From Blasia pusilla (taxonomy: Eukaryota), in assembly GCA_050084515.1 (NCBI GenBank), contig CM114271.1:7068001-7132000 (forward strand): a stretch of DNA of 64,000 nt. The letters run 5' to 3'. The position numbers were made by a program, and so were the translations under genes. Numbering within the stretch: position 1 is the stretch's first letter; each line of letters starts with the position of its first letter. The notes below the pieces were generated by a model. It did not search any database. It saw nothing but the letters and a program-made list of their open reading frames with translations, and had not been told where the DNA came from. Below are positions 1 through 34,258 of the stretch, piece after piece.

Positions 1-420
1 CAAATGCCTTCTTATGCCAGTCCTCCAATTTGATAGGCAACTGATGGTATATGGCTCGTAAATCCAATGAATTGAAGACCTTTGCATGTCCAATCGCATC
101 AAAGCTCTCCTCACAGGTGGGCATGGCATACCTATCAGATTTCGTCTCCCGATTGATACGTTGGTAATCTCCACACATCCACCTATCAGTCCTGTTGCCA
201 TGCACATCCTTCTTGGTAGGCATGACAGTGGCAGATGCATATTCTCCATGCCACATCTCCACTAGTCTTGCTCCAACCAAGTCCTCGTTCCTACTCTAAA
301 TCATAGCTCTCTCCATGTCACTAAACGTGTAGGGTCGTCGGAAGATCAGCGTGTCACTTGAAAACTCAATGCGGACCCTTCAACTTACCCAAATCATGCA
401 TACTAAATGCAAAACATCTT

Positions 421-788
421 TGTCATGACCATACGAATTATGTCGTAGAGTATAGTGTGCTAGTAGAGGCCATACCTTATGTAGGGCCGTAGTGTCTAGG
501 TAGAGATGCGATTTCATATATAGGCTTGGGGGTTACTCAGTTGAGGGTGACTTTTCTAATAGGGCCCGCTCTTAGGTTGGAGGATATAAGGTGGAGTGCA
601 CTCAAAGAACAGTTAGTTCTTTCAGTTGAGCCTGTTGCGTTGGGAGTTAGCCTTGGTAGTAAGTAGAGCTCTTGGCTATGGTGTTTCCCGCAAGCTTCGA
701 CCTATATTCTCCCATCGTCGAGTGGGTTTGGCTCGATTGTATGTGATTCTATATGTGTTTTATGACAATAGGCCTTTCACGGATTTCA
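421..788 (+). repeat. Repeat A1 of element A (promoter/R/U5 part of the LTR)
   Basis: Colinear without indels with 5447-5814 (constant offset 5026, about 95% identical by eye). TATAA at 585-589; ends in TCA. Confidence 0.93.
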
Positions 789-799
789 CTCAAAGAATT
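789..799 (+). promoter_or_regulatory. Putative self-priming primer-binding site of element A
   Basis: CTCAAAGAATT lies directly after the CA end of A1. It is complementary (one G:U) to AGTTCTTTGAG, 30 nt downstream of the TATA box (5641-5651 in A2; 615-625 in A1, with one mutation). Confidence 0.65.
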
Positions 800-2278
800 G
801 ACGTAGATCCATGGTAGCTTCGATTGTGGATCAGTAGGATATGGTTAGGGCTGATTGTGTACTCAGACGTGGATGTTTGTGGCTTGTGGCCTATGTTGGA
901 GGTGTGAATCTGGTGCGTGGTTGGCTGGAAAAGAAGCGCCTTGCTGAGAGCTTTCCAACGTGCTTTAGATCGCCGGATTTCGTCAAGGGAGTTGGAAGTT
1001 ATCAAGGATTGAAGATTCTAGTTCGTGTTCGACGGTTTTCTGATGTGGAGAGCTTGGAGTGCGGAAGCTCTGTTGAAGTTCATCCAGATTGGGTGAGAGG
1101 TTCCTGTTGCTACTTGTATTGTGATCTCATGTGAAGCTATCTGCTCGAGTGTGTGGAGCGTTGCGAATTTCTGCGTGCATGGCGGGAAGCGGCATTTGTT
1201 GGATTTGCGATTCTTGAGGTGTATGGACAGTAAGTTTGTCTGATTTTTAGCCCGGAGTGCAGAGCTTGGTTGTAGCTGATTTTTTGTGTAGAGATAGCTA
1301 TAGTGATTAATTGAATTCTGGTTGAAAGAGATTCAATTTTCGTTAAGGATTTGTGAAGTAATTGTTGATCGAAATTTTGCGGACTAGTTGAAGGTCTGGC
1401 TATGGTGGATAGCGGATCGGAGGGGCTGGTTGGTTGGTGACTCGTTCATTGTTGGAGACACCTATCCTGTTGGGGGAGCCTTGGTTGGGCCTCACTCCAT
1501 AGCGAAGCATGGCGAAGCGTACCGAAGTGTGGCGATAAGGGCGATAGGGGCATGTCTCCGCGTTTTGAAGCTTCGAGGCAACTTGTGGTAGCTCGGGGCG
1601 AGTGGGCGTGAGAGGCGGAGTAAGGAGCAAGGAGCAAGGAGAAAGCTTGCTTGCTTGGGCGTGAGGCAGTTTTTGCAGGATTTGTGATTTGAGTGTTGCA
1701 TAACTGGTCACCCATCTTTGGGCTATTTTGCCTGGAAGACGCTTAACTGCTGAGTTCTTAACTATGTCAGTGTACACACTGTTGTAGCTCATTTGGTGCT
1801 GTTCGGAGAGGTGTTAGGTGCTTTATGCATCTCAGGTTTTTGGTTGATGGACCTCTAGCGCATTGTACGGTGTAGCCTCTCCATGCATGTGATATTTTCA
1901 GGTGCTGCGAGTTCGACTAGCACGTCATCGACCTGCGACGGAGTAGCTATTGCGTTAGAATTGTGTGGTGGGTTTTGTGGATTCAGGGGGCGCCACGTTT
2001 GGTGGATTGTGTTACCTTGATTTCCATTTGCGATTGGAGGATTGTCGTTGGACTTCATGTGTTTGGATCCCCTCCACGTTGCTTCTTACTTGCGCGCCCA
2101 TTGTTAGGGTTGACGGTGATTTCCAGAGTAGTGTTACTCCTGTGTGCTACCGGTAGTGAGGCTGGAGTGATGACGAGTAGACCGTGGGAGGCTTCTTGTG
2201 GTGATGACAGGTTAGGTTGCCTACACCCATAGCTAGTAGAGCTAGAATAGTATAGCGACATCGACGTCACTTGGTTAC

Positions 2279-3200
2279 TTAGTGGTGGTAATTTGGTGGT
2301 GGTGCGGCATCGGCGTTGGTCATCACGTAACTATCAGGTGGTCTGGTTGGATACCGTGGTGCGGATAGTGGTGGTTTCACACGGAGTGGATTTAGGTATC
2401 GGCTACCTTTTCCACTCCCTACGGTTGATGAAGAGGAGGACGAGAGTGTTCCAAACACCGAGTCTTCTACGTTGTTATCGAGTGTTGCAGCTCCATTGGT
2501 TTGGGACATGGACGGGATATATGGGGCCATGAAGGGCCCACCACGATACTCGCGTGCAGTGGGCACCATTGAGTTTGAGGACTTCATGCAAGAGTTTGAT
2601 ACGTGGTGTGATATGCAGATGTTGCGGAATGCCATGTTGTTTACACCCTTCTTGGCTTGGAAGGGGTTGTTTCAGCACTTGGAGGGACCACCCATGGATG
2701 ATTACCATGAGTGTAGGAAGGACCATGTTGTTGAGATTGAGGCGTGGAGACAATATTGGTGTCCAGGCTATGTGTCTATCACCCATGGTGGTATTGGTAA
2801 TCTTGCTCCTACTATGCCCCCCCGACGTTGACGTTGGTGAATGAGTACGAGCCGGAGTGGGGGTACCGAGTGGAGGTATCGGTGGGGTACAAGTGCCCCA
2901 CAATCGTTCAAATTGTTTGAGAGTTCTTCAAGAGGTTGAAGAAGAACTATCAGGAGTGAAAGAAGAGAAGTTGAGGAATCTTCAAGACTTTGAGCGAAAG
3001 ACTGGTGAGAGTCTTCGTGAGGCAAACACTCGTATGCGACGCTTGATTTCAGTTACCCAAGGTGTGACTGAGGCTCGGGAAATCCAGACAATTTTGGTAT
3101 GGGATCTTGGACAGAGAGTTGCGCCGCAGGGTACATGATGCTACTCTTATGAGTGATGATTCACCTACATTGACCCATGTGTTTGCTCTATCTGAGAGCA
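2279..3200 (+). pseudogene. gag remnant of element A
   Basis: Motifs AVGTIEFEDFMQEFDTWCD, AWKGLFQHLEGPPMDDYHE and LQDFERKTGESLREAN are shared with the gag of elements B, C, D and E. Contains frameshifts and stops. Confidence 0.8.
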
Positions 3201-3465
3201 AACACATGGTATGGCCGAGCAGCGTCGACTTCGGACTATGTCTGTGGGTCTTCACCCCTTGTAATGAGCTCGATGGCTACCGAGATGGTAGAGGCATCGG
3301 CTGGGGGCGAGGAAAGTAGTATTTTGCATCCTTGGAGTAAATGGGATGTAATGGTTGGGCATGTGGAGTTAATTGCTCATGCTGGTAGAGGAGTTATTTG
3401 CTCAGATGATGGTGTAGCTAAGGGTGTACCATCTTGTGGGGGGGTTGCGTAGCAGCCAATGGCAT

Positions 3466-5166
3466 CCGGTGGTACATAGACTTGGAGTTGCCAACCTTGA
3501 TGCTGATGGGTTGAGTAGGAACCCATGTACTAGCCAAGAGGATACAACTGGGGCTGGATGGCATGGCGAGGTTGATGAGGAGATGGTGCCAGGTTGGCAT
3601 GCATCCGCCTTTTTATGTTGGTTAGGGATGGACTCTAGTATGGAGGACCACATGATATCTTACTCTAGTTAGAGGGTAGACGGCCAGCCTTCAGATCCTA
3701 AGGTTGGAGATGGTGGTACGGATCAGCGTGATATTCATGATGATGCATTGGTGTTGGAGTTCCTACGGATCAGTAGGGTGCCAGGCATAGTGAGTGCCAA
3801 GGAGCAAGACCGTGTTCTTCAACGTGCTAAGAGGTATCGATTGGAGGGAATACCTATTCTCCGTGTGTGGGAGGATGGTAGAGTACGAGTAGTGCCGCAT
3901 TTGGCTCAGAGAGAGCGCATTGTGCGACATGCCCATGAGGAGTTGGGACATTTTGGGGTAAAGCGTACGTATAGATTGCTCCTTGGTCAATATTGGTGGC
4001 GTGGCATGCATACTCAGGTGCAACAGTTGGTGTCATGTTGTATGGTTTGTGACCGGGTGAGGGCATCATTCAATGCCTTTACACCACAGTTACACCCCTT
4101 GCCTATTATGGGGTTGGGTTACCGTTGGAGTGTGGACTTTGCGGGACCGTTACCGTTGACTGTATGACATCATCGATATGTGTTGGTGATGGTGGAGCAC
4201 TTCTCCAAGTGGATTGAGTTGGTGGCATTACCTGACAAGGCAAGTGAGGGAACGGCGGATGCGTTTCTTAATAGAGTGCTTAGTCATTTTGGTGCACCAA
4301 CTGAAGTGATGACCGACGAGTGCATGAGTTTGAGGTGAGTTTGGTCTTGTGTGACAAGGCGTTGATTGATCATCGGACCACGTCTCCAGATCATCCAGAG
4401 GCGGATGGTTTGGCTGAGCGTGTGGTTCAGATGGTGAAGAGGGCATTGCGCAAGTATGGCCTACAGAAGGGGCATCTTGGAGACTGGGATATTCAATTGC
4501 CATGGTTAGCCATGGAGTATAGATTCAATCGCCAAGCATCCTTGGCTTCCTTCTCACCTTATTTTTTGTTATACGGCCGAGATCCAGACTTGCCAGCTGC
4601 AATTCCTCGGGATTCTAGTGAGGTGGTGAACCTTGATGACCCAAAGATGTGGATGAGAGTGTGTTTAGAGCGGCGAGCTCTTTCGGAGAGTTCTGCCAAT
4701 AGCCTTTGAGAATCTTGCCATTGCTCAACACAGGGATACGTTGCGGTATGCAACCATTCGGGATGGTGGTTATCGACCATCGATTGGTAGGTTCCATGTG
4801 GGGGACTATGTCTATTTGCAGCAGATTGCACCGACAAGGTTGGATGTGACGGCAGGCCACACTTTTTTACGAGTGCGCGAGGTGTTAGCTTCTGGAGTTC
4901 TCATGTTGGAGGGTCGTGATGGAGTTGTTTGGAAGGACCTTGTGCGTAATTGTGCACCATGTCATTTTCCAAATGTGGATGGTACTGTTGACCCAAGCTT
5001 AGCCATGATACGTGCTAGCTTGAGGTGCATGTTGTGTGGGTCTGTTGGTAACGCAGCCTGTATGTTGGTGTATGATCGGTGTTCTAGGGGTTGGCACATG
5101 ATGTGTTTGACTCCACGTGTGGATGTTGTTCCTACTGGAAGGTGGGTTTGTCCTCGATGTACTTAG
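3466..5166 (+). pseudogene. pol remnant of element A: RNase H C-terminus, integrase (HHCC + DDE core) and C-terminal PHD finger
   Basis: VVHRLGVANLDADGLSR; AHEELGHFG...YWW...CMVC; RWSVDFAGPLP; HPEADGLAERVVQMVKRAL; SPYFLLYGR; PHD CMLC...DRC...WHMMCL...W-CPRC at 5026-5160. Confidence 0.9.
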
Positions 5167-5329
5167 GAGAGGTAGATGACTTGATCTTTGCATGATATGG
5201 ATTACAGATGTGCGACTAACGATGGGGCAACCTAGCACCCGGCCTTCTTATTCGTGCATCGAAGAAGGTGTATAGCATGTAGTAGATGTATAGGGCTACC
5301 TGGGAGTTAGAGGGACCTAACACTTGATT

Positions 5330-5340
5330 AGGGGGCGAGT
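5330..5340 (+). promoter_or_regulatory. Polypurine tract upstream of B1 (element A)
   Basis: AGGGGGCGAG-T lies immediately before TGTGG, the start of repeat B1. Confidence 0.55.
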
Positions 5341-5444
5341 TGTGGTACACTTGTGTTTGTGGATGCTCTCGTCTATGTTATGTATGTATGTGAGTATGGT
5401 ATTTCGGCGATGTATGTTGTATGACGATGTGGATTCGCACGACA
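5341..5444 (+). repeat. Repeat B1 of element A
   Basis: Near-identical to 5817-5924; ends GATTCGCACGACA. Confidence 0.9.
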
Positions 5445-5446
5445 AT

Positions 5447-5814
5447 TGTCATAACCATACGGATTATGTCGTAGAATATAGTGTGCTAGTAGAGGCCATA
5501 CCTTATGTAGGGCCGTAGTGTCTAGGTAGAGATGCGATTTCATACATAGGGTTGGGGGTTACTCAGTTGAGGGTGACTTTTCCAGTAGGTCCCGCTCTTA
5601 GGTTGGAGGATATAAGGTGGAGTGCACTCAAAAAACAGTTAGTTCTTTGAGTTGAGCTTGTTGCGTTGGGAGTTAGCCTTGGTAGTGAGTAGAGCTCTTG
5701 GCTATGGTGTTTCCCGCAAGCTTCGACCTAGATTCTCCCATCGTGGAGTGGGTTTGGCTCGATTGTATGTGATTCTATACGTGTTTTATGATAGTAGGTA
5801 TTTCACGGATATCA
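5447..5814 (+). repeat. Repeat A2 of element A
   Basis: Direct repeat of 421-788. Confidence 0.93.
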
Positions 5815-5816
5815 GT

Positions 5817-5924
5817 TGTGTTACACTTGTGTTTGTGGATGCTCTCGTCTATGTTATGTATGTATGTATGTGAGTATGGCATGTCAGCGATGTATGTTGT
5901 ATGACGATGTGGATTCGCACGACA
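5817..5924 (+). repeat. Repeat B2 (terminal) of element A
   Basis: Direct repeat of 5341-5444, followed by the TSD. Confidence 0.9.
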
Positions 5925-6322
5925 TCTCCTATAACTCCTAAGGAACTAGTGTATCACACGCCGCTATCCTCCTTTCAACTTAGGACCCATATCTGGCTCC
6001 CAAGTCTCCATCGTGACTACGGTAGGACTCTCCGACGCTCATGTCGGTGGTTGCTATGGTGCAACCCCGTCTCGGAAAATAGAATTCTTATCTCCACGTG
6101 TAGTACTCGGAACCACGCTCGATGTTGTGGCTATCATCTCATTGTTTACGTGCAAAACATCCCAAGAAGTCCAAGGGTGTCTCTCCCGATCACCCCTGGT
6201 GTGTCAATCTCCTCAGGTATCGCCATTGCCTCAAACCTTTCAGTAGGCATGGGGCTCACCAACATAACAATTGTGATGTAGTGTATCCTCAAATGACGTT
6301 GCTCAACTACTCCTAAGCTGAA

Positions 6323-17717: not shown

Positions 17718-18200
17718 TGTCAAATATGAGTAGCCGATTGGTCGAGATCTATTGTGGATAGGGCATAGGAGCCAATGGACTATCTTGAGTGTAACGTTGT
17801 CCCACGGGGTCGGATGAGGTTGAGGATAGGTCCATTGTGTCAGGAACGTTGTTTCTGACAACTTTCCTGTTGAGGTCTTTCACAATTGGGTGACTTGTTG
17901 ACCAAGTCACCCGCCCTTGGTAACCTGTACGTGCAAGTTACCAAGAGGATAGCGATTTTTAGGGGAAGAGCCTTTTGGCTCTTCCTAACCCTATATAAGG
18001 GAGAAAGATGGCTTTCCCAATCCATCTTTCTCATGTTGGGCCGTTGGAGCACCTCTCTTGTATGTGGGTGAGATAAGACTAGGGTGCTAGCGTTTGGATT
18101 CCTTGATAGCATAGGGTGGACGAGGCTCGATATGCCGATGTAGATTGAGGAGTGGAGTTTTAGGTCGGGTGTGCCGTTTTTACTACTCTTTATTTTTACA
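17718..18200 (+). repeat. Repeat A1 of element B
   Basis: Starts TGTCA, has TATATAA at 17992 and ends TTTACA. It is followed by TGAGAAAGATG (18201-18211), the exact complement of 18023-18033. Confidence 0.75.
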
Positions 18201-19409
18201 TGAGAAAGATGTCGGGGGGCTAGTGGTAATTGGTTGTTTGTAGGTAGGAAAGCAAGTTGCCACGAGTGGGAGGCCCCTGGAGACGCTGGTTGGCATTTTG
18301 TTGGTCATTTTTATGTTCGGAAGACCGTGCGTGGAAGCGCTGTCCGTTTTCTCAGGTTTTTGCTAGTGCACAAGGATTGGGGATAGTGGTAGAGTGTAGT
18401 ACAAAGAGGGGTAGTGAGTGTGGTGTCAACGGATGAGCGGCGCATGGTGAGAACGTTGGTATTCGAGAGGGGAAGAGCATCTTTAGGGCTTGCAGCCGCT
18501 GGGGGGCTGTCAAGTAAAGGTGGCTAGAGTTAGGTCATAGCTCACTAGAGTCGGACGAAACCAAGGCGTGGACGTGGACGGAGCTAGGAGGCGGACTAAG
18601 CCGGGGGCGCAGAGGCGTTTACAAGGCCACGGACCCATCACAATTTAGGGCGGCCTCATAGGGCCACGGGCCCCGCATTTAGGCCCCCCCCCCCCCCCCC
18701 GCCGCGCCCTCTAGGCCATTAGGGCCCTCCAGGCCATTATGGCCCAAAGGGACGCGAGCCATACCTTGGCCCTTTTGTTTTTCCCCCTTACGTAGTTGAG
18801 AGCGCCGTGGTGAGCGCCTCCTCGACGTGGTGGAGTGCGGACGGGATTGAGTTTAGGTTGCGAGGTGCGTTTGGGGCTGGGCGGAGAGATTTTTCATGAC
18901 GTGATATTTTTCAAGCGTGGTTGGGGTTTGTGAGGATTCCGATGGAGGCATATACGCCGATGCTGACAGGAAGTTCGATGTGTTGGTTGAGGAGAGTTTC
19001 GTGTTGCGGAGGTTGTCATATCACGTGGAGGAGTGGATGTTGACGATGTAGTAGGTTCGTGGGCGTGATCAGTTTATCCATTTGAGTCCCTTTTCTTGCA
19101 CTTATCTTATGTGATTGAGAGTGCTTGGTATTGAGTAGCAGCAGGTGCTAGGTGGATGCAGTGATGGTGACAAGTGTAGACTCTTTTCATGTGTAGCATG
19201 TTGGTGGATATACGGCGGTTTCGAGTAGGGGTCGCATGTATGACCCGAGAGTGTTAGTAGGTTAGGTGAGTCAGTTAGGAGGCTCATGGTGAGCCCGAGT
19301 GTTGAGTGCGCGTGAGGCCGAGTGTGTCGTTAGGGGATTATTATTAGCATCGGTGAGCTAGTGAGGAGTGTGGGAGACTCTTGGTGAGTTTGAGTGCTTG
19401 AGCGGGTGA

Positions 19410-21955
19410 GACAGGGTTGTCATCACGGCATTCTTCCAGGGTTTGGAAGAACGGGGTCGTGCGAGCAGTAGTAGTGGTGTGACACGGAGTGGACTGAGAT
19501 ACGAAGGGGTTACGAATGAGGAGCTACCTCGACATCCATCCGTGGCTAGATTTTCATCACTAGACACTGGGTCTGGTGACGAGATCGCAGACGGAGGCAA
19601 TATCACTTGGCGGGAGATGGACAAAATGGGCCATCGAGGAATGCGTCGTTTCTCGAGTGCAGTGGGCACCATCGACTTAGATGATTTTATCCAGGAGTTT
19701 GACACGTGGTGCGACTTGCAAGAGATACAGACTGCGACACGGTTTAACCCTTTCATGGCATGGAAGGGGTTGTTCCAGCACTTGGAGGGTCCTCCGATGG
19801 ATGACTACATGGAGTTTTGATCACTACATTCAGTAGAGATTGATGCGTGGAGGATGTATTGGGCTCCAAGGTATGTGTTCACTAGTGGTCGCGAGGCATA
19901 TGATGAGAACGTGAGAGGAGAGAGACCCACACCATCAGCCCGGAGACTAGATGGAGAGGAGGGCAGTGAGACAGGCGATGTGGTAGAGACCTCTAGTGGT
20001 AGAGGGCCACCCAGCTTCAATCCCACAGTAGTGTTCTTCCGACAGTTGGTGAAGAGCTACCAGGGCGTACGCACCGACAAGTTGAAGAGTCTACAGGATT
20101 TTCAGCGACGATCGGGTGAGAGTATGAGAGAGGTATTCACACGCATTAGGAGGCTGATCATTGGTACAGGGTTTTGGACCGAGAACTACGAAGGAGAGTC
20201 CAAGATGCGGTGGTGATTCACACAGTGAAGCCCACATTGAAGGTGATCTTTGAGTTGTCTGAGCGTATTGAGCTCAACATGAGTGAGGAGCAGGTAGTGA
20301 CCGTTGGATTTTCTCGAGAGTTGAAGGATCCACCAACAACGGTGACCCCACAGGTGTCAAAGCGAGCACAAGTACCACGAGAGCGGGCGTGTGTGCCCAT
20401 AGAGCAGGTCGGGTACCGTGAGCCTATGAGGCAACGACACGTTCCTACATATGTTGCCCAGTAAGGACCAATGTTGTCTTGTTGGATGTGTGGAGGGGCC
20501 CACAGGCATAGAGATTGCACACAGCATGGGAGAGGACCAAGAGCGCCTCCGATTGCTCAGGAGCCACAGAGGATGGCCCCACCACAATACTAGTGTGACT
20601 ATTGCCATAGATATGGTCACACTAGGGATAGATGTTTTGACCTTCTTCGAGAGGCACATCCAGAGGTAGGGCGAGGGCCTAGGGGCGATCGTCTTGGAAG
20701 AGGTCGGGGAGTTCTTCCTGGATGTGGTGGTAGAGGACCACCACCAGCTAGAGGAGATGGAGCAAGAGCACCAGAGCCGGCACTTCTCTCACGCATTGAT
20801 CAGTTGGAGTAGAGGATTGCTGCCATAAGGATGATGCAGCTCAGGGAAGGCACGGAGCCGCGAGCACCTAGTGTGGCTTCAGCTTCTAATTCTTACCCTG
20901 ACCTGGGTGAGGATCTTGCTAGTATGGGGTTTATGTGTAGTGCAGATCAGGTTGAGGCGGCTGCAGTGGTGACTCGGGGTGCTGCAAGAGGTACCGAGCC
21001 ATCGAGAGGTGGAGTTGAGATTGACTCACCAGAGGGGACCGATGGGCGGCAGGCCAGGGTTCCACAGTCATTCACATTGTTGGAGGCACTACACACACCA
21101 TTGATGATTCCTTGACGACCAACGGTGCCTACAGCTCAGGCAGGTACATTGACCTCACGAGGAGTTGGAGTGACAACTCCTATGTCAGCTCGAGTGGAGT
21201 CAGTGTCGACCATAGTGTTGGAGGTGGCCACCATAGTAAGTTAGATTCCACTATTTTCCGCCATAGAGTTGGCGATGTTTGGAGTTGGACTAGTTGAGGT
21301 GTTTTGGCTAGCTATCACGTTGTGTGAATGTGGAGAGGTGACTGCTTCTTGTTCATAGGTAGTTGATGAGGTGATGGACTTGCCCTCAAAGCTAGTGCTC
21401 GGGACATCCCCCACAGAGTCATGGCATACGACGGCGGCAAATTTGATAGATATTCTAGCTCGACCGGCCATAGAGCGAGCAGTGGTGACACATGGAATAG
21501 TGTTACTGGATAACCGAGCTGGAGTAGTTTGCTTGGTTAGTCCAACGAGGACAGTATACCACCCGCATTGCGTCCTACTTGATTCACGAGTGCAACTCTT
21601 GATGTTAGGGAAGGCCGCGTGTTTAGCATTGGGGTTACGGAAGGCCGACATTGAGACTTATCCCTTTCAGATATAAACCTCGATTGGGGGCGTATCACCC
21701 ACATAGTATATGACTCGACAGGAGATAGTTGTCAGAGTCCAGCGAGAGCATGCGACGGATAGTGCTATGGTGCGCACATGTGCGATTACGACACCAAACG
21801 AGTCGTACGATGTGTTGGTGGGGAGTACAGTGTTATATCCCCTAGGATTCATCATTGACTTCTCGGAGGAGACCGTTGCTTATCCGCCAGGGTGGTGGTC
21901 AGGTGACACATGGATGAGTCAGTTATCCATGCAGTTTTTGGGAGGAGGTGGTTGA
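19410..21955 (+). pseudogene. gag and protease remnants of element B
   Basis: AVGTIDLDDFIQEFDTWCD; AWKGLFQHLEGPPMDDY; degenerate Zn knuckles at about 20480-20650; protease VLLDSR and ESYDVLVG. Confidence 0.85.
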
Positions 21956-22302
21956 TCACGAGACGAGTCTGTGACCACGTTGGCAACTTTCACAAGGAGT
22001 GTATGTTAGCTGGTCTGGAGAGTTGTTGGAGGGAAATGCACATGCACTGGATATCACAGTAGCGGATAGTCCCACGGAGAGACATGCCATGGCAGGTGTC
22101 TCTTCCCATGTTGGCAAGACCTCTTCACCATTGTGGGGTACGACTCAAGAGCTATAGAGGAGTGCCAACGACCTCGTGAGGCAAGTGTAGAGTCATGCCT
22201 TTATCCCGGAGCAGCAAGAGTCAGGTGGCCATCGGGCCCCTAGAGTGGAGGCGTTGACCCCACTGGATATCATACCCATTGTGTGGCAGTGTCGAGAGGA
22301 CG

Positions 22303-23227
22303 GTGTTAGATCTCTTCAGACGGATTAGCACCGGATTAGCTGCAATATTGCAGGCGGGCATTGGGGTGCATCGGTACCTTTATGTGGAGAGAGATGAGTC
22401 CGCGCGACAAGTATCATTACGTCACGTAGCGAGATTGGTCCAGAGGTATCATGAGTTTTTTCCGGTATCCGTAGTACAAGGATATCAGCATACACTACCC
22501 GCCGACATATCTTTGGTGGGGGCGCAGGATCTAGATAGAGTTGGCACCATTCATTTGGTGATTGGTGGATAGCCATGTGAGGGTCATTCATCAACTGGCC
22601 AAGGGTTTGGATTGAAGGACCCAAGGGCAGGGATATTTTGGGAGATGTTGCAAGTAGTACGACACTTGCAGGAGATGTTCTCCGACATATATTTTGGAGA
22701 ACATGCCGTTGTTGGGAGATACTCGTGCATGTGTGATGACGAGTGTGCATCAGGTGAGGTCCTCGTTGAGACCTGCTGTGTTGTTAGATGCAGCAAGAGT
22801 TGGATCACGCACCCATCGTCCATGACTATGGTGGACGAACTTGATACCATCATAGGTGCTGAGTCGAGCATAGGATGGAGTCCAGAGAGCACCACATCTC
22901 CCACTAGATGCTATTTTGGGATCAGGGCGTCGATCTCAGGTGGTGACGCAGGATGATAGACCACCGTTGGCGATGGCCAATAGGGTGGGGGAGTTGAGGG
23001 CAGCCTTATCTAGGTTGGTGAGCTTCCCAGCATCCCATGCCTTTAGTTAGGGAGGGCCAGGCATGATTTGGGATGAGGTGAACTGAGCATTGGAGGAGCC
23101 TCCAACAGATTAGCGCGAGCGTGCCATGGGGTTTGCTACGGGTACTACGGCGTTGCCAGATAGGACTGAGGCATCCCGGAGACAAGTGTTGGGGCAAGCG
23201 ATGGACCTCAATTGTCTCACATGGATA
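22303..23227 (+). pseudogene. DNMT3-like methyltransferase domain of element B
   Basis: VLDLF; YLYVE; HLVIGG*PCEG; ILEN (frameshifted); SRTHRP.LWWTN; AMGF; RRQVLGQAMD. Confidence 0.85.
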
Positions 23228-23832
23228 GTCAGCCTAGGTATGGATGAGCAGAGACAGATGCGAGTGTCATCTATGCCGTCACGTCCACAAGTCGGACCAT
23301 TGCCTATAGGGTCTGTACAAGCATTGGGTTGGGGTGGGACGAGGAGACATAGGCACCCATGGATTTCCTAGGACGTCGTTCAAGCGGAGAGTGCGGAGGC
23401 GGTGAGAGTAGCACATGTTCATTTTCTGGATGTAGAGCATGGTGTAGGAGGTCAAAGTGGAGTGGTTGTTGCGGAGGTGGCTAGGGTTACTACATAGCAA
23501 CCAAAGCCGGAGGTTGCCTCCTCTCCGAGTGAGGTCAAGATGGAGACTTGGGAGCCTGTGATAGGTATGAAGTTGATAAGAGGAGAGTGACGGCGAGTTC
23601 ATAGGTTTCTGAGAGGCCATGTAAGTTGTTTTGCCTTCAGTATGAGAGATTTGGATATGCTGAAGGGTCACAAAATACGGATTGAGTGGGCTAGTGATAC
23701 GACGATCTTTTGTCGACCCTACATGTATTCTGATATACAGCGAGTCTTGATTCAGACCAGGAGTCGGGACTTGTTGGAGGTAGGACTTGTGGAGTTATCA
23801 CATGGGGAGTATGCATCTGCCATAGTCATGCC

Positions 23833-24338
23833 TGTCACGACGGTTATGATAGATCGATGGGATCTAGCAGAGCGTCTGCACAAGTAGTGGAGGATAGGCC
23901 CAGGTGGTCGAGGATCACCTCTTGAGGCCCCGAGAAAGTTGAGAGAGCAGGTTTCCCCTTCGTTCGGCTCATTTGGAGCCATATAGAGAAACTTACTATT
24001 TTTGGTAAGTTTCCATATTAGGGATAGTTGACTTTCCACTTTGGGAAGTGGCCCTTCACACGTTTTAGCAGGTCAAGAGCCAAGGTGGTGACCTCCGAGC
24101 ATAGGTTACCGTTTAGAGGGCTTGGGGTATACCTCCAAGAGAGAGAGAGAGCTTGAGAGCTCATTCTCTATTTGTTGAACATCTTGGCATAAGGCGGCGG
24201 AGCTATGGTCCCTTGCCTTGTGAGTGTAACCCAAGCCTCTCATTAGAAGAGTGGGTTTGGTTTGACATAAGAGAGAGTGCACACCTTTGAGAGCTATGGT
24301 GTGAGATGGTGTAGAGAGAGATTGGATCTTACTTTACA
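23833..24338 (+). repeat. Repeat A1 of element C
   Basis: Direct repeat of 33625-34137. Ends TTTACA and is followed by the PBS AAGAGAGAATG. Confidence 0.92.
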
Positions 24339-25887
24339 AAGAGAGAATGAGAGAGTGAGAGAGCTTCATGGGGGAGCTCGCTGGTCACTCGTTGTTTTTG
24401 CAGGTTGGGGACCATGTTTCCCATTCAGCAGCTCATGGGAGTGCTCACCGGAGCAAGGGATTCTTTGATTGTTCTTTGCATTTGCCGATTTTTTGTGTGG
24501 AAGAGTGGCGCACGGAAGCGCTACCCAATTTATGATAGGGATTGATTATATATGGGGGCGTGTTGCCCCATGCCGGAGCTCTTAAGAGCACCATGTAGCT
24601 TACTGATTTGTATTTTTACAGGTTTTACATTTGTGTTGGGATAACTCAACGCAAAAGCGTTGCCAAATTTTGTGTAGAAGAAAGAGACATTGAGCTTTAC
24701 GACAGTCCCTTTCAGTTTTTTCTCGAATGTCCGTTTCTAAATTATCTTTGACGCTCTTGTAGATTGTGAAGTTGTGCACGATATGCATCAAATAATACGC
24801 AATTTGGAGTTGTGAGCAAAACGTTATGGTCAATATTGCAAAATTGGCATTGCTAGGCGATTTTTAGGGTTAAACTGTTCAAACCCTAAACCAGCCGCCA
24901 TACCGGCGGCGGCCGTCGCCGTTGTAGTCACCATCAATGGTCTTCCGTCGATGGTCAATCGTCACCATCATCATTCAACCATCACCATCAATGGTCCACC
25001 GTCCGTTGTCCACCCTTTGGTTGCCATTGCCGCCGTTACGGAGTGGAGGGTCTCTTACGACGTTCGTTGATTCTTTGACTTGCGTCGCCACCACGTACTT
25101 TGTATTGGCCGCCATCATCATCAAATTTTTGTCATCAACCAGTGATGGCAGATGACCTCCGATTATGGTGTTTGAGTTTTGATTTCATGCTGCTATGTTG
25201 TGATTGGTAGCCGCTCGACGATGATTGATTACCGTGCCGTGACGCCCGTAGCCGCAACGCGCCGTCGATTGCCACGTCGTGTTGCTCGTGGCCGTACGGC
25301 ACCATCTCGATTGCAGAGCTGCTCTGTCATTGTGGAGCAGAGTGTGGGTTTATTGTTGATTGAGGAGGGTATGCCGCTGAGTGCCGCATCCCACCATCTA
25401 TGGCCGTGCCGTTTTGTGCCGCCTATTGCGCCGCACCGTTCTGTTGGAACCGCACTGTCTATGGAGGAGTTTTGAGCAGCGTCAGTACGGGAGGATTATG
25501 ACTTGCTGATTGGAGGAGTTGTCTCCATAATCGAGTTGGGGTCGAGATTTGCAGTTGCTGAGGAGCGACATCGACATGTGTTTAGGTTACCCATTATGGT
25601 CCTTTACCCTGCACGCGTGAGGGATTTTGGGATTTGGATAGTTTATTTGGGGATATTGGGTTGTGTGGATGCTGAGAGCATCATTTATATATGTGGTTTA
25701 GGGAACATAGACCTGTGTGGGATGTCCAAAGTTGAGGATAGGTTATCGATGAGATGATAGCCTGGTCGATTTTCCGCACCACGTCGCTTGTTGCCGCACG
25801 TTACACCTCTCGGGGAGGGAGAGTGTAGATCGAGGGCCGAATGTTTGGGATGAATGATTGAGGGATTACTCGGGAGGTTGAGAGTGA

Positions 25888-28083
25888 TTGAGTGACAGGG
25901 GCACGAGGATCATCACGGCGTCCATTCGGGACTTTGAGAGGCGAGGTGGTGAACCTGAGAGTACCTCTAGAGGTTTTACGCGGAGTGGCACGAGGTTCCG
26001 AGGGTCTCCACGTGAGGGACCACCTCGACCTCCTTCTGTGTCATCGTCAGAAAAGGGGGAGGGTGTAGAGGAGTTTGTGAGCACATCACCACACATTGTG
26101 AGTGGTCCTACCAGTTGGGCGTACGGGATGGACGACCGGAGTAGAGGACCGCATAGGTTTTCAGATGCAGTAGGTACGATTGAGTTGCATGATTTCATAG
26201 CAGAGTTTAAGAGTTGGTGCGACTCCCAGCGGGCCAGGAAATCTAGAGAGTTCAACCCGTTTACAACATGGAACGGTATGTTCTAGCATTTAGAGGGGGC
26301 ACCCATGGACGATTACCATGAGTTCTCTCAGAGATATGCATGTGAGATCGAGGCGTGGATGCTCTACTATGACCCACATTATGTGTCATGGACGAAACCG
26401 TTCCCAGATGAGGAGGAGGAGTCAGGAGTGGCTACTTCCTCTTCCACTAGTGACGTTTTAGGAGGGATCACTCGCACAAGAGCAATTGCATCCTCTAGTC
26501 GGGTTTGTCCCAGGTTCAACCCTGTGGTTGAGTTCTTTGCTGAGTTGAGGGCATGTGCGGCTCAACAGCAACCGCCTACTATTATTTTTTGGTCATGTGG
26601 TGGAGCCCATCATCAACGCAATTGCACTCGTCAGGGTCATGGATGTGTGCCTCAGCATGGAGGAGGAGATGGTGCTGCACCAAGAGGTTATCAGTGTGAC
26701 TATTGTAAGAGGTATGGTCATACACGCGCCAGTTGTTTCAGTTTACATGCTAAGTTACGTCTGGATCGAGGGCCAGAGAGGGCACCAGAGCGAGTAGCCA
26801 GTCCGGTTGGGCCTAGAGATCGTGCACTAGGTAGTCCCATTGAGGGACGAGGAGCTGGAGTTGCCCAACACGGTGGTGGAGCTACCCGTGGAGGAGGTAG
26901 AGTCCTACCACCTAGACACGTTGAGGGGGATGCCGGGCGTGAGGCTAGGATGGCTGCTCAGATACATCAGCTACAGGAGCAGATTGCTGCTATGGCATTG
27001 AGATCACCCGATGCCGGATCTGTGGCATCGACATCATATGGAGCAACCATAGATATGGAGGATCCTAGTTGGATGTGCGGGGTTGCCTAGATGGAGACAG
27101 CCGCAGTTGTGACGCGTGGAGCAGCCTCAGAGTTGGATCCACAGCGAGGGGAAGCCACAAAGAAGACTAGGCTTCCTCAGTCTTTTAGTTTGTCCAAGAC
27201 GATGAGGACTCCATCGATGGGTCATGATCTGAGTTCCTGGAGAGTTGGTGATGTTGTTGGTGTGCAGGCACAGAGGGCGATGGGAGAAGCGAGTGCGACG
27301 AATCCTATTGTTGATGCTCAAGAGGGGCATGTGTCGAGCACGTTGTTGGGGGTTGCCCCCATTGTGTACCGCGCTCCTTTATTTTTTGCTTCCGATGTTA
27401 TGACGTTGGGGGATACGCCCGCCGAGGCTTTTTGGCTGGCCGCTACGCTATGTGAGCGTGGAGTTGGAGTTCCCGCATCACATTCAGACGTGATTGCGGA
27501 GGAGGTGATGGACCTGCCCTTGGAGCAGATGCTCGAGCCGTCCACGTGAGATTCATGGCAGGCTGCGGCTGCTAGGATGGCGGAGATGCCCGCTAGACCC
27601 ACGATAGAGCGTGCCATGGCTTCTCCTGGTGTTGTGTTTCTGGATAATCGTGGAGAGGTCTTCCAGTTGGTGAGTCTCGGAGGTAGAGCTTTTAGTTCGC
27701 AACGAGTCTTGTTGGATTCAGGAGCGCAATCCCTGATGTTGGGGAAAGCCTCACTTAGAGAACTGGGCTTGACGAGAGCCGATGTGGAGCATTTTCTATT
27801 CCAGATACAGACATCCTTGGGTGGATCAAGAACCACACAATATATCACCCAACAAGAGGTCGTGGTGAGGATTCACCCGGGACATCTTATAGATGAGTCC
27901 GTGGTGCGAGCCAAGGCGATAGTGACTCATGTAGAGTCCTACGATGTCTTGGTTGGTGGAGCAATGTTATACTCGATGGGGTTTTCCCTGGATTATTGGA
28001 GGAGTCAGCGTCCTAGAGACCAATATGGCAATCAAGTGATGGGTACCTTTGCTCATTACCCGTTCGATTCACAGGTACAGTGA
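25888..28083 (+). pseudogene. gag (Zn knuckles) and aspartic protease of element C
   Basis: AVGTIELHDFIAEFKSWCD; CDYCKRYGHTRASC (CX2CX4HX4C); RVLLDSGAQSLMLG; ESYDVLVGG. Confidence 0.88.
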
Positions 28084-28433
28084 TCGAGCGACGGCCACGA
28101 GAGGTGGCAACCTTAGCAACATTTAGCAGTGCCATCACTTGGCCTAGTGATTTGATTGAGGGACATATCCATGCAGAGGATACTCCTGTTCTTGACATTT
28201 CTATGGAGAGGAGTGTTATGGTAGCCGCATCATTCCATGGAGGAGAGGTGCCGTTATGGGGCTTGACTGAGGAGCTTCGACGATTGGCAAATGAGCACGT
28301 GCAAACCGCATGGAGCCAGGCGTTTGCACCAGAGCGTGACAGGTCTGGGGAACCCGAGGTAGCAGGGAGTGCTACAATAACATCCTTGGATACCATACCC
28401 ATTGTGTGGTGTATCCCGGAGGAGGGTATTCGA

Positions 28434-31020
28434 GTGTTAGATGTCTTTGGAGGGATTAGCACAAGTTTAGCTGCTGTTTTGTAGGCAGGAGTGCGAGTGC
28501 AGCAATACCTGTATGTGGAGAGTGATGATGTTGCGAGTGCGTCTCACCACAAAATATGGCACAATTATGCCTACATTTTCCCGACTTATTGTCTACGTCC
28601 CCAATACATGGGTATCAGAGTTCCCTACCGAGGGATATTTTGTTGTTGGGGGCGCATGACTTAGAGCAGGTAGGGACCATTGATTTGGTCATTGTCGGTT
28701 GGCCATGTCAGGGCCAATCGAGTGTTGGACGAGGCAGCGGGTTGGCTGACACTCGGTTCAAGTTGTTTTGGGAGATGTTGTGGGTCTTACAGCAATTGCA
28801 AGAGCACCAGTCGCGTTCTCGAGCCTACATTCTGGAGAATATGCCGATCTTAGGAGACTCCAAGTCACGGGTGGTGACGAGTGCTCACCAGATGCGTGCC
28901 ACGATCGGCCCAGTTGTGTTCTTGGATGCGGCGAGTGTAGGTTCTAGAGCCCATCATCCGCGTCTATGGTGGACCAACTTGGTAGAGCGCCCCTCCCATT
29001 TGTTAGGGGATTCCATTTTGGATCCAGGTGGTCGATCATAGGCAGTGAGGCACGATGATCGACCACCGTTGTCGTGTCGAGAGCCTTTCTTTGAGTAAGG
29101 GCATGCCTTCTAGCTACGACATACGTGGTCGATGCAAGGAGAACTCTCTAAGAAGTTCTCCTTTTTCAATAAAAAATTATTATGTATGCTCTCAATTATC
29201 TCACGACATGTATCAAAAATGAAATTGTCGAGCACTTTTTCGTAACATCGGACCCCAAAATTCCTAACTATAAAATCCATATAAACAACCTTGGTAAGGA
29301 GCAAGTAGATTCATGAATATGAGTTTCAGGAGATTGCATTCTAGACGATAATGATGACCTTGGTAAGGAGCAAGTAGATGGCTCAACGTGGCTGACTTGC
29401 ATTTTGGGAACTTCTACATCTTCTTCTATCGTAGTTTATATCGTTACTTCTGCACTTTACTGTACTTTTTTTCTTGGCGGAGCACTTCCTTGCTTGCCAC
29501 GCACTATAACTCTTTCTTTGTCAGAAGGCTGCAACAGTTACTATGGTCACTCACAACAAATTAGCTTTGTAGTTTGTTTGTCTAGATCTTCGCTGGAAAC
29601 ATTTATTAGACCATGGCCATGATGAAGTGTACATATCAAAGGATTGAGTCATTATCTAAAGTTGGGTGTGTTACATTTTTCATTCAGGAATGTCATTGGA
29701 ATACTTTACGCTTGTACATGAGGAAGATAACACAACTAGTGTTAAATCCTACTTTAGCAGGCCTATTGACGTCCATGGATTGCTATATAAGGACATACAA
29801 AATACAATCCCATGTCCTTCCATATGTGACAATAGGAAGGATCACCGTAGTTGGAGATTGAATGACCTGGTTCATGAACGCCTCCCCAAAGTGATAAACT
29901 AAATAGAGAGTGAATCAATATCTATCTACAAAGAGTACCTTGATATGGTATGGATTGAGGAAAGGAAATTTGGGCACAACTCGTGCTTCACCCCTGTCCA
30001 TGTTTGACAGAAATTTTTATTCTCCTCAAGAATGGGTTTTGGCAAAATTATTCTCCCAAGAGGGGTAATCCACTCTAATTGGGAAAGTAACAAACCTAAA
30101 CATTCACTATTTTAGTATGACTAAACTCCTCTAAGGTGACAAACCTCTCATCTCCACATACACACACTGCACTGTAGAAACCTCTCGAAGAATAGACCAT
30201 GGTGAAGTTACTGTCCCAAGAGGGGTGATCCATTCTCATTGGAAGAGCAAACAATCCCAAAGCCATACATTGAAGAGTGATACGAGAGACTCAAGATGTG
30301 GAATAAAAGGTGATGAACCCTTGAAGGTCCCTCCTCTTTATAAACTCACAAGTGATCCACAATAGTAGAAAATAAAGCTAATCTTATCTTGTGCCACATG
30401 GCTTCCTCTCAAGGTTTAGCCAATCACATTTTGACACAAGTAGATTTCCTCTTATCTCTTCCAAAATATCCTCTTTTACCCACTTGATATTTTCCAAATT
30501 ACCCCAACTAACCTAACCACCAACAAAGACTACTTTTGTTTTTCATTAAAGCATCAACCTCACTACTTTACTTTTAAAAAATCATATTTTATTTATTACC
30601 TCTTTTTTTAAAATTGGGCCCGCATAAAAGAGGCACAATAAAGAGGTTTAAACATGAGAATTTTCTTTTCCTAAGCTAATTTACTTAATACCAATAAAAC
30701 TCTATCTAACACTTAACGAGGAAGGAGTTTACATATTGAGTGATTTTACTATACGACACCGTTGAGTGTGGTCAACAGGGTAGGGAAGCCGCGGGCAGCC
30801 TTGCCCACGTTTGTGAGTTTTCCCGCTTCCTATGCATACAAGGAGGCCGGTCCTTGCTTGGCTTGGGATGACCAAGTTCAACGGTTGGTGGAGCCTAACG
30901 CCGACGAGAGAGCGAGCGATGGGATTTCCCACAGGAGTGACGACAGTATCGTCAATGTCAGAGGCATCACGACGCCATGTCTTGGGTCAGGTGATGGACC
31001 TGAACTGCTTGACATGGATC
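28434..31020 (+). pseudogene. DNMT3-like methyltransferase domain of element C, split by the insertion at 29070-30758
   Basis: Before the insert: VLDVFGGIST, YLYVE, DLVIVGWPCQGQS, YILENMP, SRAHHPRLWWTN. After it: EPNADER, ERAMGFP, RRHVLGQVMD. Confidence 0.9.
29070..30758 (-). mobile_element. 1.69-kb non-coding insertion with the family's termini (solo A+B unit or non-autonomous element)
   Basis: Termini TGTCGT...ACGACA with a perfect 4-bp TSD CCGT (29066-29069 / 30759-30762); removal restores RPPLSVVNR. Orientation is inferred from a minus-strand TATAAA near 30340 and the CACGACA end. Confidence 0.85.
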
Positions 31021-31370
31021 CTCAGTTTGGGAATGGTTGAGCAATGTCGTTTGAGATCGCGATAGATCACAGCGGTTGCGTTGGTGAGCCCCGTGCCTAC
31101 CGAGACAGTGGAGGCAGAAGTTGGGCCGAGACCCGAGGAGATCTACACACCAGGGGAGATCGGGAGAGACACCCTTGGACTTCTTGGGATGTTTGGCAAG
31201 TACGCTAGGAGATGATAGCCAGAGCATCAAGCGTGGTTCCGGGCACTGCATGTGTAGGAGATCAGAGTATGCAGTTGGTAGTAGGAGAGCGGTCGAGTGT
31301 TGTTGTTTGAGACGGGGTTGCACCATAGCAACCACTAATACCTGCGCCAGAGAGTCCTACCGTAGTCACA

Positions 31371-33573
31371 ATGGAAACTTGGGAGCCAGATATGGGCCCT
31401 AAGTTGAGAGGAAGAGAGCGGCGCCGAATACATCAGTTCCTCATGAGTTATAGGAGCTGCTTTGCGTTTAGCATGGAAGATTTGGGTACGTTGAAGGGAC
31501 TAGGGATCCACATTGAGGTGTCAAGTGATACGCCGATCTTCGGACGACCCTATAGGTACAGTGATATGGAGAGGGCTCTGATTCAGAGTAGGATCCAGGA
31601 CTTGGTCGGAGCAGGACTAGTGGAGATGTCGCATGGGGAGTATGTATCTGCCACTATCATGCCCGCCAATAAGGATGTGCATGGCAATTGGACGGATAGG
31701 CGGATGTGTAGGGATTACGGACCTATCAATCGGCAGACGAAGTTCGATAGGTATGCCATGTCCATCCTCTAGGAGATCTTTGATGCGATTTGTTACGCAA
31801 AGGTCTTCTGTTCATTGGATTTACAAGCCGGATACCATCAACTGCCTATCAGATTGGAGGACAGGGAGAAGACGTTTTTTTTGGGCATCGATCCTCACTG
31901 GAAGGATTGTTTGTACCAGTGGCGGTTCTTACCATTTGGGTTAAAGAACGCCCTGACTGAGTTTCAGAGGGTCATGGATAGGATCTTGGTTGGTCAAGAT
32001 TTTGCTAGATGTTATATTGATGATATCCTAGTCTTTAGCGCCACGGTTGAGGAGTATGAGCGACATCTAGAGGAGGTGTTTCGACCATTGCAATTACATG
32101 GGCTGAAGCTACATTCAAGCAAATGCAAGTTCTTCTACGACCAGATTGAGTACTTGGGTCATAAGATATACCCATGGGGCCTTGGTGTTCAACAAACGAA
32201 GGTAGAGGCTATCTCATGCATTCCACGCCCTACAGATATGAGCGGTGTTCGCGCATTCATGGGATTGGCAAACTTCTATCGGCGTTACGTCAAGGGATTC
32301 AGTTCGATTGCGAAGCTGCTGATCTTGCTGACCAAGGTGGATCACGAGTGGCACTGGAAGGATGAGCAGGAGCGAGCATTTTAGTTGCTCAAGGACAGGT
32401 TGACGTCCGCGCCCATCTTGAGAAGATCGATCAGGGGGCGTCCTTTCCAATTGCACACAGATTGGAGCATGTTGGGGCTTGGAGCGATGCTCACTCAACA
32501 TGATGATGAGGGTAGAGAGTTCGTGGTGGCTTACACTAGCCGCTCGAACAACGCTGCAGAGGCAAAGTATAGTTCATATGAGAGTGAGTGCTTGGCTGCG
32601 GCGTGAGCTATCGCGCATTTTAGGTGTTACTTATTCGGAAACCCCTTTACCATCATCAGTGATCATCAACCACTGAAGCCGTCGATGGAGTCCGACAAGC
32701 TTACAGGAAAGCTTGCGAGATGGGCTGTGTTGTTGCAGACCACAGATGCTCAACCAAGATGCATAGGTTGAGTCGTAACCCATGCTTGAGTAAACGAGAT
32801 GCGATTGGAGCTCGATGGCATGGAGAGAATGATGAAGAGTCAGTGCTAGGATGGCACGCGTCAGCCTATTTAGGCATGTTGGCTATGGAGAGCCAGAGTG
32901 TGGAGACTTCGATGGCGAGGTCTAGTGGAGAATCCTTGGACCTTGAGGCCAGTGAGGAGATGACAAGTGGCCGAGATATTCATGATGATGGAGTAGTCTT
33001 GGAGTACCTTCGTACTGGCAGCGTTGCGAGCACCGTGGGTGCTAGAGAGCGGGATCGGATCCTACAACGGGCCAGACGGTTTCGTTGGGAGGGGACACAT
33101 GTTTTGAGGGTTTGGGAGGATGGTAGAGTACGCGTAGTGCCGCATTCTTTGCAGAGAGCATGACTAGTGCAACATGTCCACGAGGAGTTGGATCACTTTG
33201 GGATGAAGCGGACGTACAACTTGCTCCAGATTCAGTATTGGGCATAACCAACATCGGGATACATTGAGGTATGCGACTATTTCGGGTGGTGGTTATCGAC
33301 CAACTATTTGGAGGTTTCATCAGGGAGATTATGTCTACTTGCAGCAGACGACATCGACGACGTTGGATGTGACTGCAGGGTGCACTATCATGAGAGTGCG
33401 TAACGTTTAGCCATGTGATGTTCTCTTGCTGGAGGGGCACGATGGTATGGTATGGAAGGACCATGTGCGTAATTGTGCGCCATGTCACCGTCCTAACATT
33501 GATGGTACAGTAGATCCGAGCTCAGCAGTAGTTCCTGCAGGCTTGCGTTGTATGTTGTGTGGTTCTGCTCGTG
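31371..33573 (+). pseudogene. RT, RNase H and partly deleted integrase with the start of the PHD finger, element C
   Basis: LDLQAGYHQL; FLPFGLKNA; CYIDDILVFS; FQLHTDWS; YSSYESECLA. The integrase core is deleted near 33240, and CMLCGS at about 33550 is joined to B1. Confidence 0.92.
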
Positions 33574-33622
33574 GTTCGATGACAACGATGTACGTTGTGT
33601 AGCGATGTGTATGCACACGACA
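33574..33622 (+). repeat. Repeat B1 of element C (5'-truncated by deletion)
   Basis: Matches 34206-34254. Ends CACGACA, followed by AC and the start of A2 (TATCACG). Confidence 0.85.
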
Positions 33623-33624
33623 AC

Positions 33625-34137
33625 TATCACGAGTGTTAGGATAGATCGGTGGGATCTTGTAGAGCGTCTGCACGAGTAGTGGAGGATAGGCCCAAGAGGT
33701 CGAGGATGTCCTGTTGAGGCCCCGGGAAACCTGAGAGAGCAGGTTTCCCCTTCGTTTCGGCTCATTTGGAGCCATATAGAGAAACTTACTATTTTGGGTA
33801 AGTTTCTATATTGGGGATAGTTGACTTTATACTTTGGGAAGTGGCCCTTGACATGCTACAGCAGGTCAAGAGCCAAGGAGGTGACCTCCGAGCATAGGTT
33901 ACTGTTGAGAGGGCTTGGGAGAGGGAAGGGGGTATACCTCCAAGAGAGAGAGCTTGAGAGCTCATTCTCTCTTTGTTGAACCTCTTGGCATAAGGCGGCG
34001 GAGCTATGGTCCCTTGCCTTGTGAGTGTAACCCAAACCTCTCATTAGGAGAGTGGGTTTGGTTTGACATGAGAGAGATTGCACATCTTTGAGAGCTATAG
34101 TGTGAGATGGTGTAGAGAGAGATTGGATCTTACTTTA
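33625..34137 (+). repeat. Repeat A2 of element C
   Basis: Direct repeat of 23833-24336. Confidence 0.92.
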
Positions 34138-34254: not shown

Positions 34255-34258
34255 TGCT

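Follow-up and report, generated by a model that had tools for sequence, protein, structure and literature searches.

KnitGypsy-Dnmt3 of Klebsormidium nitens was described by de Mendoza et al. (2018, PMC5890265) as an element with Gypsy domains and a Dnmt3-like methylase in Pol, and the legends to Fig. 4c and Fig. 1 of that report give its repeats as arranged as in DIRS, in the order A-coding-B-A-B. The portions of its text available to us make no mention of the repeat junction, a spacer, target duplications, priming or a route of integration, and a 2026 preprint (10.64898/2026.05.21.726589) mentions Gypsy-DNMT3, in its accessible part, only in passing. The other systems that invite comparison are summarized here from the accessible portions of the respective articles. 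Tf1, Tj1 and Tcn1 carry a primer site after the upstream LTR that complements the RNA 5′ end, together with a tract and the domain order PR-RT-RH-IN (PMC4600332, PMC6317226). In vitro, HIV-1 integrase cleaves both strands of the 2-LTR junction after CA (PMC1905944), and cleavage of the 2-LTR circle junction has been described for foamy virus (PMC1180852). Such circles were claimed as integration precursors in 1984 and later set aside for retroviruses (PMC11054761), where most of them are dead ends and integration proceeds from linear DNA (PMC11054761, PMC3766001); the question is back in work on escape from integrase inhibitors. In IS30 and IS3, a DDE enzyme cuts both strands of a circle beside the joined tips and inserts it with target duplication (PMC9333248). 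Ginger1 has a Gypsy-like integrase, TG...CA ends and a 4-bp target duplication, with no reverse transcriptase (RT) and no LTRs (PMC6839031).

Here we analyse a 64,000-nt stretch of Blasia pusilla contig CM114271.1 (the window), from the 390-Mb genome of a land plant. A palindromic site lies within it, and the carrier of this site is an abundant Ty3/Gypsy-type element with the layout A1-internal-B1-A2-B2. Two families with this layout, A and C, occur in the window, with the following features.

417–420, plus strand: left copy of the 4-bp target duplication (right copy 5925–5928, one mismatch).
421–5924, plus: family-A element, internally deleted, 5.5 kb (against 9.1–9.8 kb for most full-length copies).
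421–787, plus: A1, the downstream part of the upstream LTR (promoter, R, U5), beginning at the integrated left end.
585–589, plus: TATA-like box, presumed functional, ~30 nt before the putative RNA start.
614–626, plus: putative 5′ end of the RNA, which would act as self-primer through its complementarity to the segment that follows A1.
788–800, plus: primer-binding site of the self-priming type, adjoining the A1 end.
2331–2831, plus: probable gag-like frame fragment, judged by position and by likeness to frames before the CCHC knuckle in other copies; no Pfam match.
3673–4709, plus: integrase zinc finger and core, with stops and frameshifts.
4669–5166, plus: C-terminal part of the integrase, with PHD finger.
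5306–5321, plus: short inverted repeat upstream of the polypurine tract, common to families A and C.
5330–5337, plus: polypurine tract directly 5′ of B1.
5338–5444, plus: B1, first part of the intact downstream LTR.
5438–5453, plus: internal attachment site (B1/A2), made of the B end, a 2-bp spacer (5445–5446) and the A start; palindromic core 5441–5450.
5447–5813, plus: A2, second part of the intact downstream LTR.
5813–5814, plus: seam between LTR end and LTR start, the putative 2-LTR circle joint.
5814–5924, plus: B2, the initial part of the upstream LTR, presumably brought round by way of the circle; its end is the integrated right end.
17718–37103, plus: related element split by the family-C element, with an exact 4-bp target duplication and its internal attachment site deleted.
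23833–34254, plus: family-C element of the same layout, B1 partly deleted, target duplication with one mismatch.
24336–24351, 33616–33631 and 34136/34137, plus: primer site, attachment site and seam of the family-C element.

In the window copy of family A the self-primer complement has decayed, and A2 retains a 10-nt match at 5643–5652. The inverted repeat at 5306–5321 has been kept although the LTRs of families A and C are otherwise unrelated, and it might pause plus-strand synthesis. Over positions 1–37103, elements are nested several layers deep in one another's coding regions. A domain search of ~39200–49100 (plus strand) found a host gene with a RING finger, a kinase, ankyrin-like repeats and repeated Mind-bomb SH3 domains, which we take to resemble the plant E3 ligase KEEP ON GOING.

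The gene content comprises gag, protease, a Dnmt3-like methylase, RT, RNase H, a DDE integrase and a PHD finger. Pfam searches of the frames of full-length copies gave the order cytosine methylase (PF00145), RT, RNase H, integrase zinc finger and core, and PHD, with the methylase between protease and RT and the integrase matching rve and H2C2; the protease match, in one window frame, was weak (E 0.008). The best solved-structure matches of the methylase are DNMT3B/3A. Among 30 relatives, integrase residues D721 and D781 are invariant and E816 is present in at least 90%. Pfam found no tyrosine recombinase in 32 frames of five full-length copies, in 16 window frames or in the match lists of 120 relatives. 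Canonical Ty3/Gypsy elements are flanked by two whole LTRs whose outer ends are integrated; here the upstream LTR is divided, and the integrated ends lie within it. The proteins of the element place it in Gypsy, while its layout departs from the canonical one.

Forty family-A junction loci were fetched at 10 kb, and both ends were scorable in 24, most of which span 9.1–9.8 kb and have the A1-internal-B1-A2-B2 layout. A 4-bp target duplication was exact in 19 of these 24, had one mismatch in three and was missing in two, against a 4-bp match in 1 of 552 cross-element control pairs; in family C it was exact in 10 of 11 and had one mismatch in the other. These figures leave aside 16 of the 40 family-A and nine of 20 long family-C loci with no locatable end, from which one locus (L141), scored later, proved to have an exact duplication. 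Single duplications bracket the entire A1...B2 layout, and the target sequences bear no relation to the junction, as expected of a DDE integrase.

A preliminary description of this DNA had drawn attention to the B1/A2 junction as a palindrome (GACA-AT-TGTC) inside the LTR whose halves form the integrated ends. On re-reading the window, the letters at 5438–5453 are as it gave them and the 10-nt core at 5441–5450 is a perfect palindrome; the family-C junction at 33616–33631 likewise agrees, and the eleven termini that it had cited as half-sites were all found, those at 12299, 30758, 55780, 29070 and 63112 on the minus strand. One pair of these termini belongs to a 1.7-kb AT-rich element on the minus strand at 29070–30758. 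The terminal motif and an exact 4-bp target duplication are present there, but A/B repeats are absent and it is not a copy of the layout; it may be a non-autonomous element mobilized by this integrase, or be Ginger-like.

Genome-wide, a pattern allowing a spacer of 0–8 nt returned 586 family-A and 726 family-C junctions, with 0 matches to the reversed control of either, so the junction occurs far beyond chance. The constant 2-bp spacer and conserved halves that the preliminary description had expected were both borne out in families A and C. By eye, the spacer is 2 nt in 95 of 100 family-A and 99 of 100 family-C junctions among the matches listed (194 of 200 together). In family A the centres of these 100 are GC (42), AC (22), GT (20), AT (6), another 2-nt sequence (5) or of another length (5); in family C they are AC (41), GT (20), GC (16), AT (12), another 2-nt sequence (10) or 3 nt long (1). 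The founder centre was most likely GC, decayed by C-to-T change on either strand: independent decay predicts ~8 AT centres in family A, where 6 were counted, whereas AC centres in family C exceed the prediction and the model fits less well there. The AT centre of the palindrome in the window would therefore be a double decay of a GC-centred one that was already perfect. AC had been considered as the founder spacer from 60 similarity-ranked loci, which were biased by the query; the unbiased patterns put GC commonest in family A, and that candidate was rejected. After removal of 4 duplicate loci, the junction lies in the context tract-B-A-B in 118 of 134 junction loci of both families, the remainder being disrupted or odd.

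By the anatomy around this context, the true LTR is B plus 2 bp plus A, preceded by a tract and followed by a self-priming site of the Tf1 type. In families A and C alike, a G-rich tract lies directly 5′ of B1, and the segment adjoining the A1 end is complementary to a stretch of A ~30 nt downstream of the TATA-like box. This self-complement is 13 nt long in the family-A and 16 nt in the family-C test copies, with different sequences, against longest self-complements of 10 and 12 nt, respectively, in 300 shuffles. It reaches at least 10 nt in 23 of 24 family-A copies; in family C it is 16 nt in five of eight copies and 8–10 nt in three. Because the complement holds in two families of different sequence, we favour self-priming over priming of the tRNA type. 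With a tract and a self-primer flanking B+A, ordinary reverse transcription would give BA-internal-BA. The repeats behave as LTRs that are re-copied in each cycle, to judge from 15 elements in which A1/A2 identity is 97.2% within and 94.7% between elements and B1/B2 identity 98.0% and 95.8%; A1 and A2 share lineage variants along the whole of A. A re-copied region confined to the first 180 nt of A was also considered (Fisher p 4e-9, in a test that treated as independent copies that are not) and discarded, as the alignment has shared variants up to the A end and a cluster of single changes at A ~190–200.

RNA depth in three runs, which come from one study, were matched by species label and were mapped to a multi-copy repeat, was 86–143 in one bin and 2–6 in the next, which holds the A2 end, the seam and B2; a few reads cover the B2 bin. 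From this drop before the seam, B2 is probably outside the RNA and the seam made anew. The family is transcribed in the sense direction over its whole length (L096 locus, the same three runs), and loose read ends that match family C show this family to be expressed as well. We place the RNA start ~194 nt into A1, from the TATA-like box, and the RNA 3′ end in A2, where reads support it. Read 3′ ends pile up at locus place 429 (~A position 162), upstream of the putative start. At A ~190–200 (window 610–620 and 5636–5646), multi-base changes are clustered and differ between A1 and A2 of one copy; the cluster sits at the putative RNA start, inside a hairpin.

The A2/B2 seam resembles joined cDNA ends, or a 2-LTR circle joint. 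By eye, among the matches listed, 91 of 100 family-A seams (752 in all) are blunt, 4 carry primer-site bases, 1 carries two polypurine-tract bases and 4 show other changes. In the corresponding 100 of 858 in family C, 66 seams are blunt, 22 carry the first base of the primer site and 4 carry 2, 4, 11 or 24 bases of it; 3 have the final base of the polypurine tract, 2 are mixed (one includes the tract) and 3 show other changes. These patterns are blind to deletions of more than ~1 nt, and some copies carry larger ones. One seam (L141) contains 160 nt of leader, enclosed by the exact target duplication. The one-base state requires 17 changes on a tree of 49 copies, a number not exceeded in 435 of 500 shuffles; with 28 of 46 inner branches open and 6 of 55 seam loci left off for rare seam lengths, this hints only weakly at a seam without lineage signal.

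We think it probable that these copies arise from a closed 2-LTR circle, reopened by integrase at the palindrome inside the upstream LTR. The attachment site of a Ty3/Gypsy integrase would then have moved from the LTR ends to the LTR interior. The RNA would start ~194 nt into A1 and end inside A2. Its 5′ end would prime after A1 and the tract before B would prime the second strand, through an anatomy visible in the copies and a chemistry modelled on Tf1, to yield a normal linear cDNA with B+2 bp+A at each end. The ends of this cDNA, which lack the attachment motif, would be joined blunt into a 2-LTR circle, presumably by host repair. Integrase would nick 3′ of CA on both strands of the upstream-LTR palindrome, leaving 2-nt 5′ overhangs, and would insert these ends with a 4-bp stagger and loss of the spacer, giving A1-internal-B1-A2-seam-B2. 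The upstream site would be used in ~99% of cases, most likely as the first to become double-stranded after second strand transfer, the downstream LTR being completed last. The genomic seam would be the same whether joining preceded or followed the cut.

A 2-LTR circle holds two palindromes, and cutting the other one would give A-seam-B-A-internal-B. In family A the context of the ordinary layout had 457 matches and the verified alternative 1. Patterns for the alternative permutation returned six family-A matches (two plus four), one of them of the predicted form: L297/L300 reads A-seam-B-A-primer site-internal-tract-B with an exact 4-bp target duplication. Recombination between ordinary copies would have to occur about four times to produce it, which makes one insertion the simpler account. 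The other candidates were rejected. Two seam-B-junction matches proved to be a chance flank and a tandem B-A-B-A-B, and three of the four junction-A-primer-site matches were of other kinds, two having a leader of 101–160 nt before the seam or its repeat and one running into an inverted A. No A lies upstream of B among the 134 junction loci (57 of them family C), and no junction follows B among 20 family-C seam loci.

Two equal sites should be used about equally, so the 457:1 bias is the main point that a plain closed circle leaves unexplained. The preliminary description had proposed that a circle is linearised by cutting after CA on both strands of the palindrome; the unrelated 4-bp target duplications, the cDNA-like seam and the alternative permutation support that opening, while the preference for one site falls outside its model. 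The most likely cause of the bias would be timing, the upstream LTR being double-stranded once the second strand transfer is done, with ~9 kb still to be synthesized before the downstream LTR is complete. Marking of the site by the element's own methylase is a speculative possibility.

Other arrangements were met in the course of this search. L296 and L022 are tandem B-A-B-A-B copies, as unequal crossing-over between B repeats would give. In family C, L056 (with L171, L172 and L174) starts exactly at the B start, without a tract, and continues as B-A-primer site-leader; this start resembles an unpermuted upstream LTR, and no far end could be located. Solo A-seam-B units that carry 4-bp duplications are frequent (L066, L195, L198, L199, L200, L202, L207, L209, L211, L213, L295), and account for 9 of the 20 family-C seam loci picked for having no exact junction match; they may derive from A-by-A recombination or from cutting at both sites. 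Endings of the form tract-B-flank, without A2-B2, occur in this genome in 2 of 20 sampled loci (L176, L190) and in 13 metagenome loci (L224, L232, L244, L250, L255, L259, L262, L264, L271, L279, L283, L286, L287), and could reflect integrated 1-LTR circles, B-by-B recombination or short-read collapse. L201 (G000:C1:7357400-7360600) consists of three head-to-tail 1,036-bp units, each with an A end, a seam and B.

As an alternative to a closed circle, integrase could make the same cut on linear cDNA, holding both halves of the upstream site and inserting them, and host repair could join the free outer ends while insertion proceeds or once it is complete. The genomic products, seam remnants and alternative copy among them, are all accounted for just as well, and the 457:1 bias follows more simply if integrase binds early to whichever site is double-stranded first. 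It would also break the chromosome at each insertion, yet the listed seams are blunt at the frequencies given above (91/100 and 66/100, a count that misses larger deletions), and we regard this route as unlikely.

Copying in the manner of PAT and Ngaro, in which the RNA extends into B2, the seam is inherited and B1/A2 is a mere template for rebuilding the ends or a circle joint, is improbable. The order A1-B1-A2-B2 is indeed shared with PAT/Ngaro/VIPER (PMC6681497, as accessible to us), family-A seams are 91% uniform among the matches listed, and the few reads in the B2 bin would fit. Yet RNA depth drops ~15- to 50-fold before the seam, and the seam extras are nested pieces of primer site or tract scattered on the tree; moreover, the primer site and tract bound B+A as in an ordinary LTR, no recombinase was found and targets are duplicated.

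It is highly doubtful that a host nuclease or a reverse-transcription stop makes the ends at the palindrome, leaving integrase just to trim and insert them. The link between integrase and the cut does come from the products, and a 2-nt overhang per half would also result if two ends overlapping in the spacer underwent ordinary 3′ processing. The palindrome has neither a primer site nor a tract that could set such ends, however, and a motif kept at 43–65% RT likeness in different hosts points to a reader encoded by the element. An accident of tandem insertion, recombination or assembly carries negligible probability, since tandem B-A-B-A-B copies do exist (L022, L296) but 118 of 134 junction loci share the tract-B-A-B context, more than 1,300 exact junction matches stand against 0 in controls, and one target duplication encloses the whole layout.

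The internal site is not confined to this genome. Relatives of the element were found in Marchantia, Calypogeia, Closterium, Klebsormidium, Chara and Haematococcus, the nearest named RT relatives being Marchantia proteins. In a FastTree phylogeny of 114 search matches, rooted at the midpoint, most relatives, including the Klebsormidium proteins, fall in a 97-row group with local support of 99; two Chara matches were too short for this tree, and the sequence of KnitGypsy-Dnmt3 itself was not matched to a protein id. B1/B2 pairs with the same junction occur in 21 of 80 metagenome loci, many of them redundant, and include a third family, 45–49% alike in RT. Of seven distant metagenome loci with at least 600 nt downstream, five have a tract and a palindrome with a 2-nt centre, the G-rich tract lying 110–190 nt before the palindrome, where an exact 10-mer is expected by chance in 600 nt ~1 time in 1,000; the other two (L228, L293) have no palindrome in the sequenced downstream DNA. 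In L222 both palindrome halves have changed and palindromy is kept, a compensatory change, and four of the seven loci have a self-complement of 14–20 nt. These distant contigs look collapsed, and the genomic layout is not visible in them. The motif is kept across elements only 43–65% alike in RT, in different hosts.

Whether the route extends to the wider group is, in our estimate, evenly balanced: in a clade of Gypsy elements bearing PHD and Dnmt3 domains, from green algae and non-seed plants, the 2-LTR circle may be an obligatory precursor, integration by cDNA ends having been abandoned for an inherited internal site, with the twin to be cut chosen by the order of reverse transcription. The literature searched, which lay within open sources rather than subscription journals, Repbase Reports and bioRxiv supplements, held no account of this junction or integration route. 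Thousands of natural insertions look like circle-route products, in a transcribed family with a 10-bp site. If the closed-circle reading is correct, it would connect the integrases of retroelements with the way in which bacterial insertion sequences cut circles; the A-B-A-B layout, that of PAT and Ngaro included, would be a permuted 2-LTR circle, which offers a simple origin for split direct repeats; and a widespread green-lineage clade is likely to be overlooked or misclassified by LTR-finding programs because its elements are not flanked by their two LTRs.

Set against the systems described at the outset, the element is very probably of the same kind as KnitGypsy-Dnmt3, with which it shares, as far as the accessible description goes, a methylase between protease and RT and A-coding-B-A-B repeats combined with Gypsy domains. 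Like Tf1, Tj1 and Tcn1 it has a self-complementary primer site, a polypurine tract and the order PR-RT-RH-IN. Tf1-type elements integrate by linear cDNA ends and keep two whole LTRs; here, by contrast, the cDNA ends would be joined and an internal site used. No chromodomain was found after the integrase, and a PHD finger stands where chromoviruses have a chromodomain. Ginger1 differs in that RT and RNase H are present here, and it is a possible home only for the element at 29070–30758. To our knowledge, the PAT/Ngaro/VIPER group is without target duplications. Its members share the identical repeat order A1...B1 A2 B2 and, as described in the portions available, encode a tyrosine recombinase (PMC6681497), whereas a DDE integrase and 4-bp duplications are found here; this is not a PAT/Ngaro element.

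The comparison with retroviral 2-LTR junctions is closer in chemistry, both having a palindrome in continuous DNA that a DDE integrase cuts, or here would cut, after CA on both strands. The retroviral site is the joint itself, with 4 bp between the CAs, and its use is a minor or disputed route; the site described here is genome-encoded within the LTR, spaces the CAs by 2 bp and lies apart from the joint, and every copy examined appears to be its product. Unlike that of the HIV-1 joint, this spacing would let one cut yield the usual 2-nt overhangs. IS30 and IS3, according to the accessible portion of their description, are bacterial DNA elements whose junction is rebuilt by transposase in each cycle, with no RNA step. 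The junction described here would instead be inherited through RNA, and the element, while not a member of that group, would work in a like manner.
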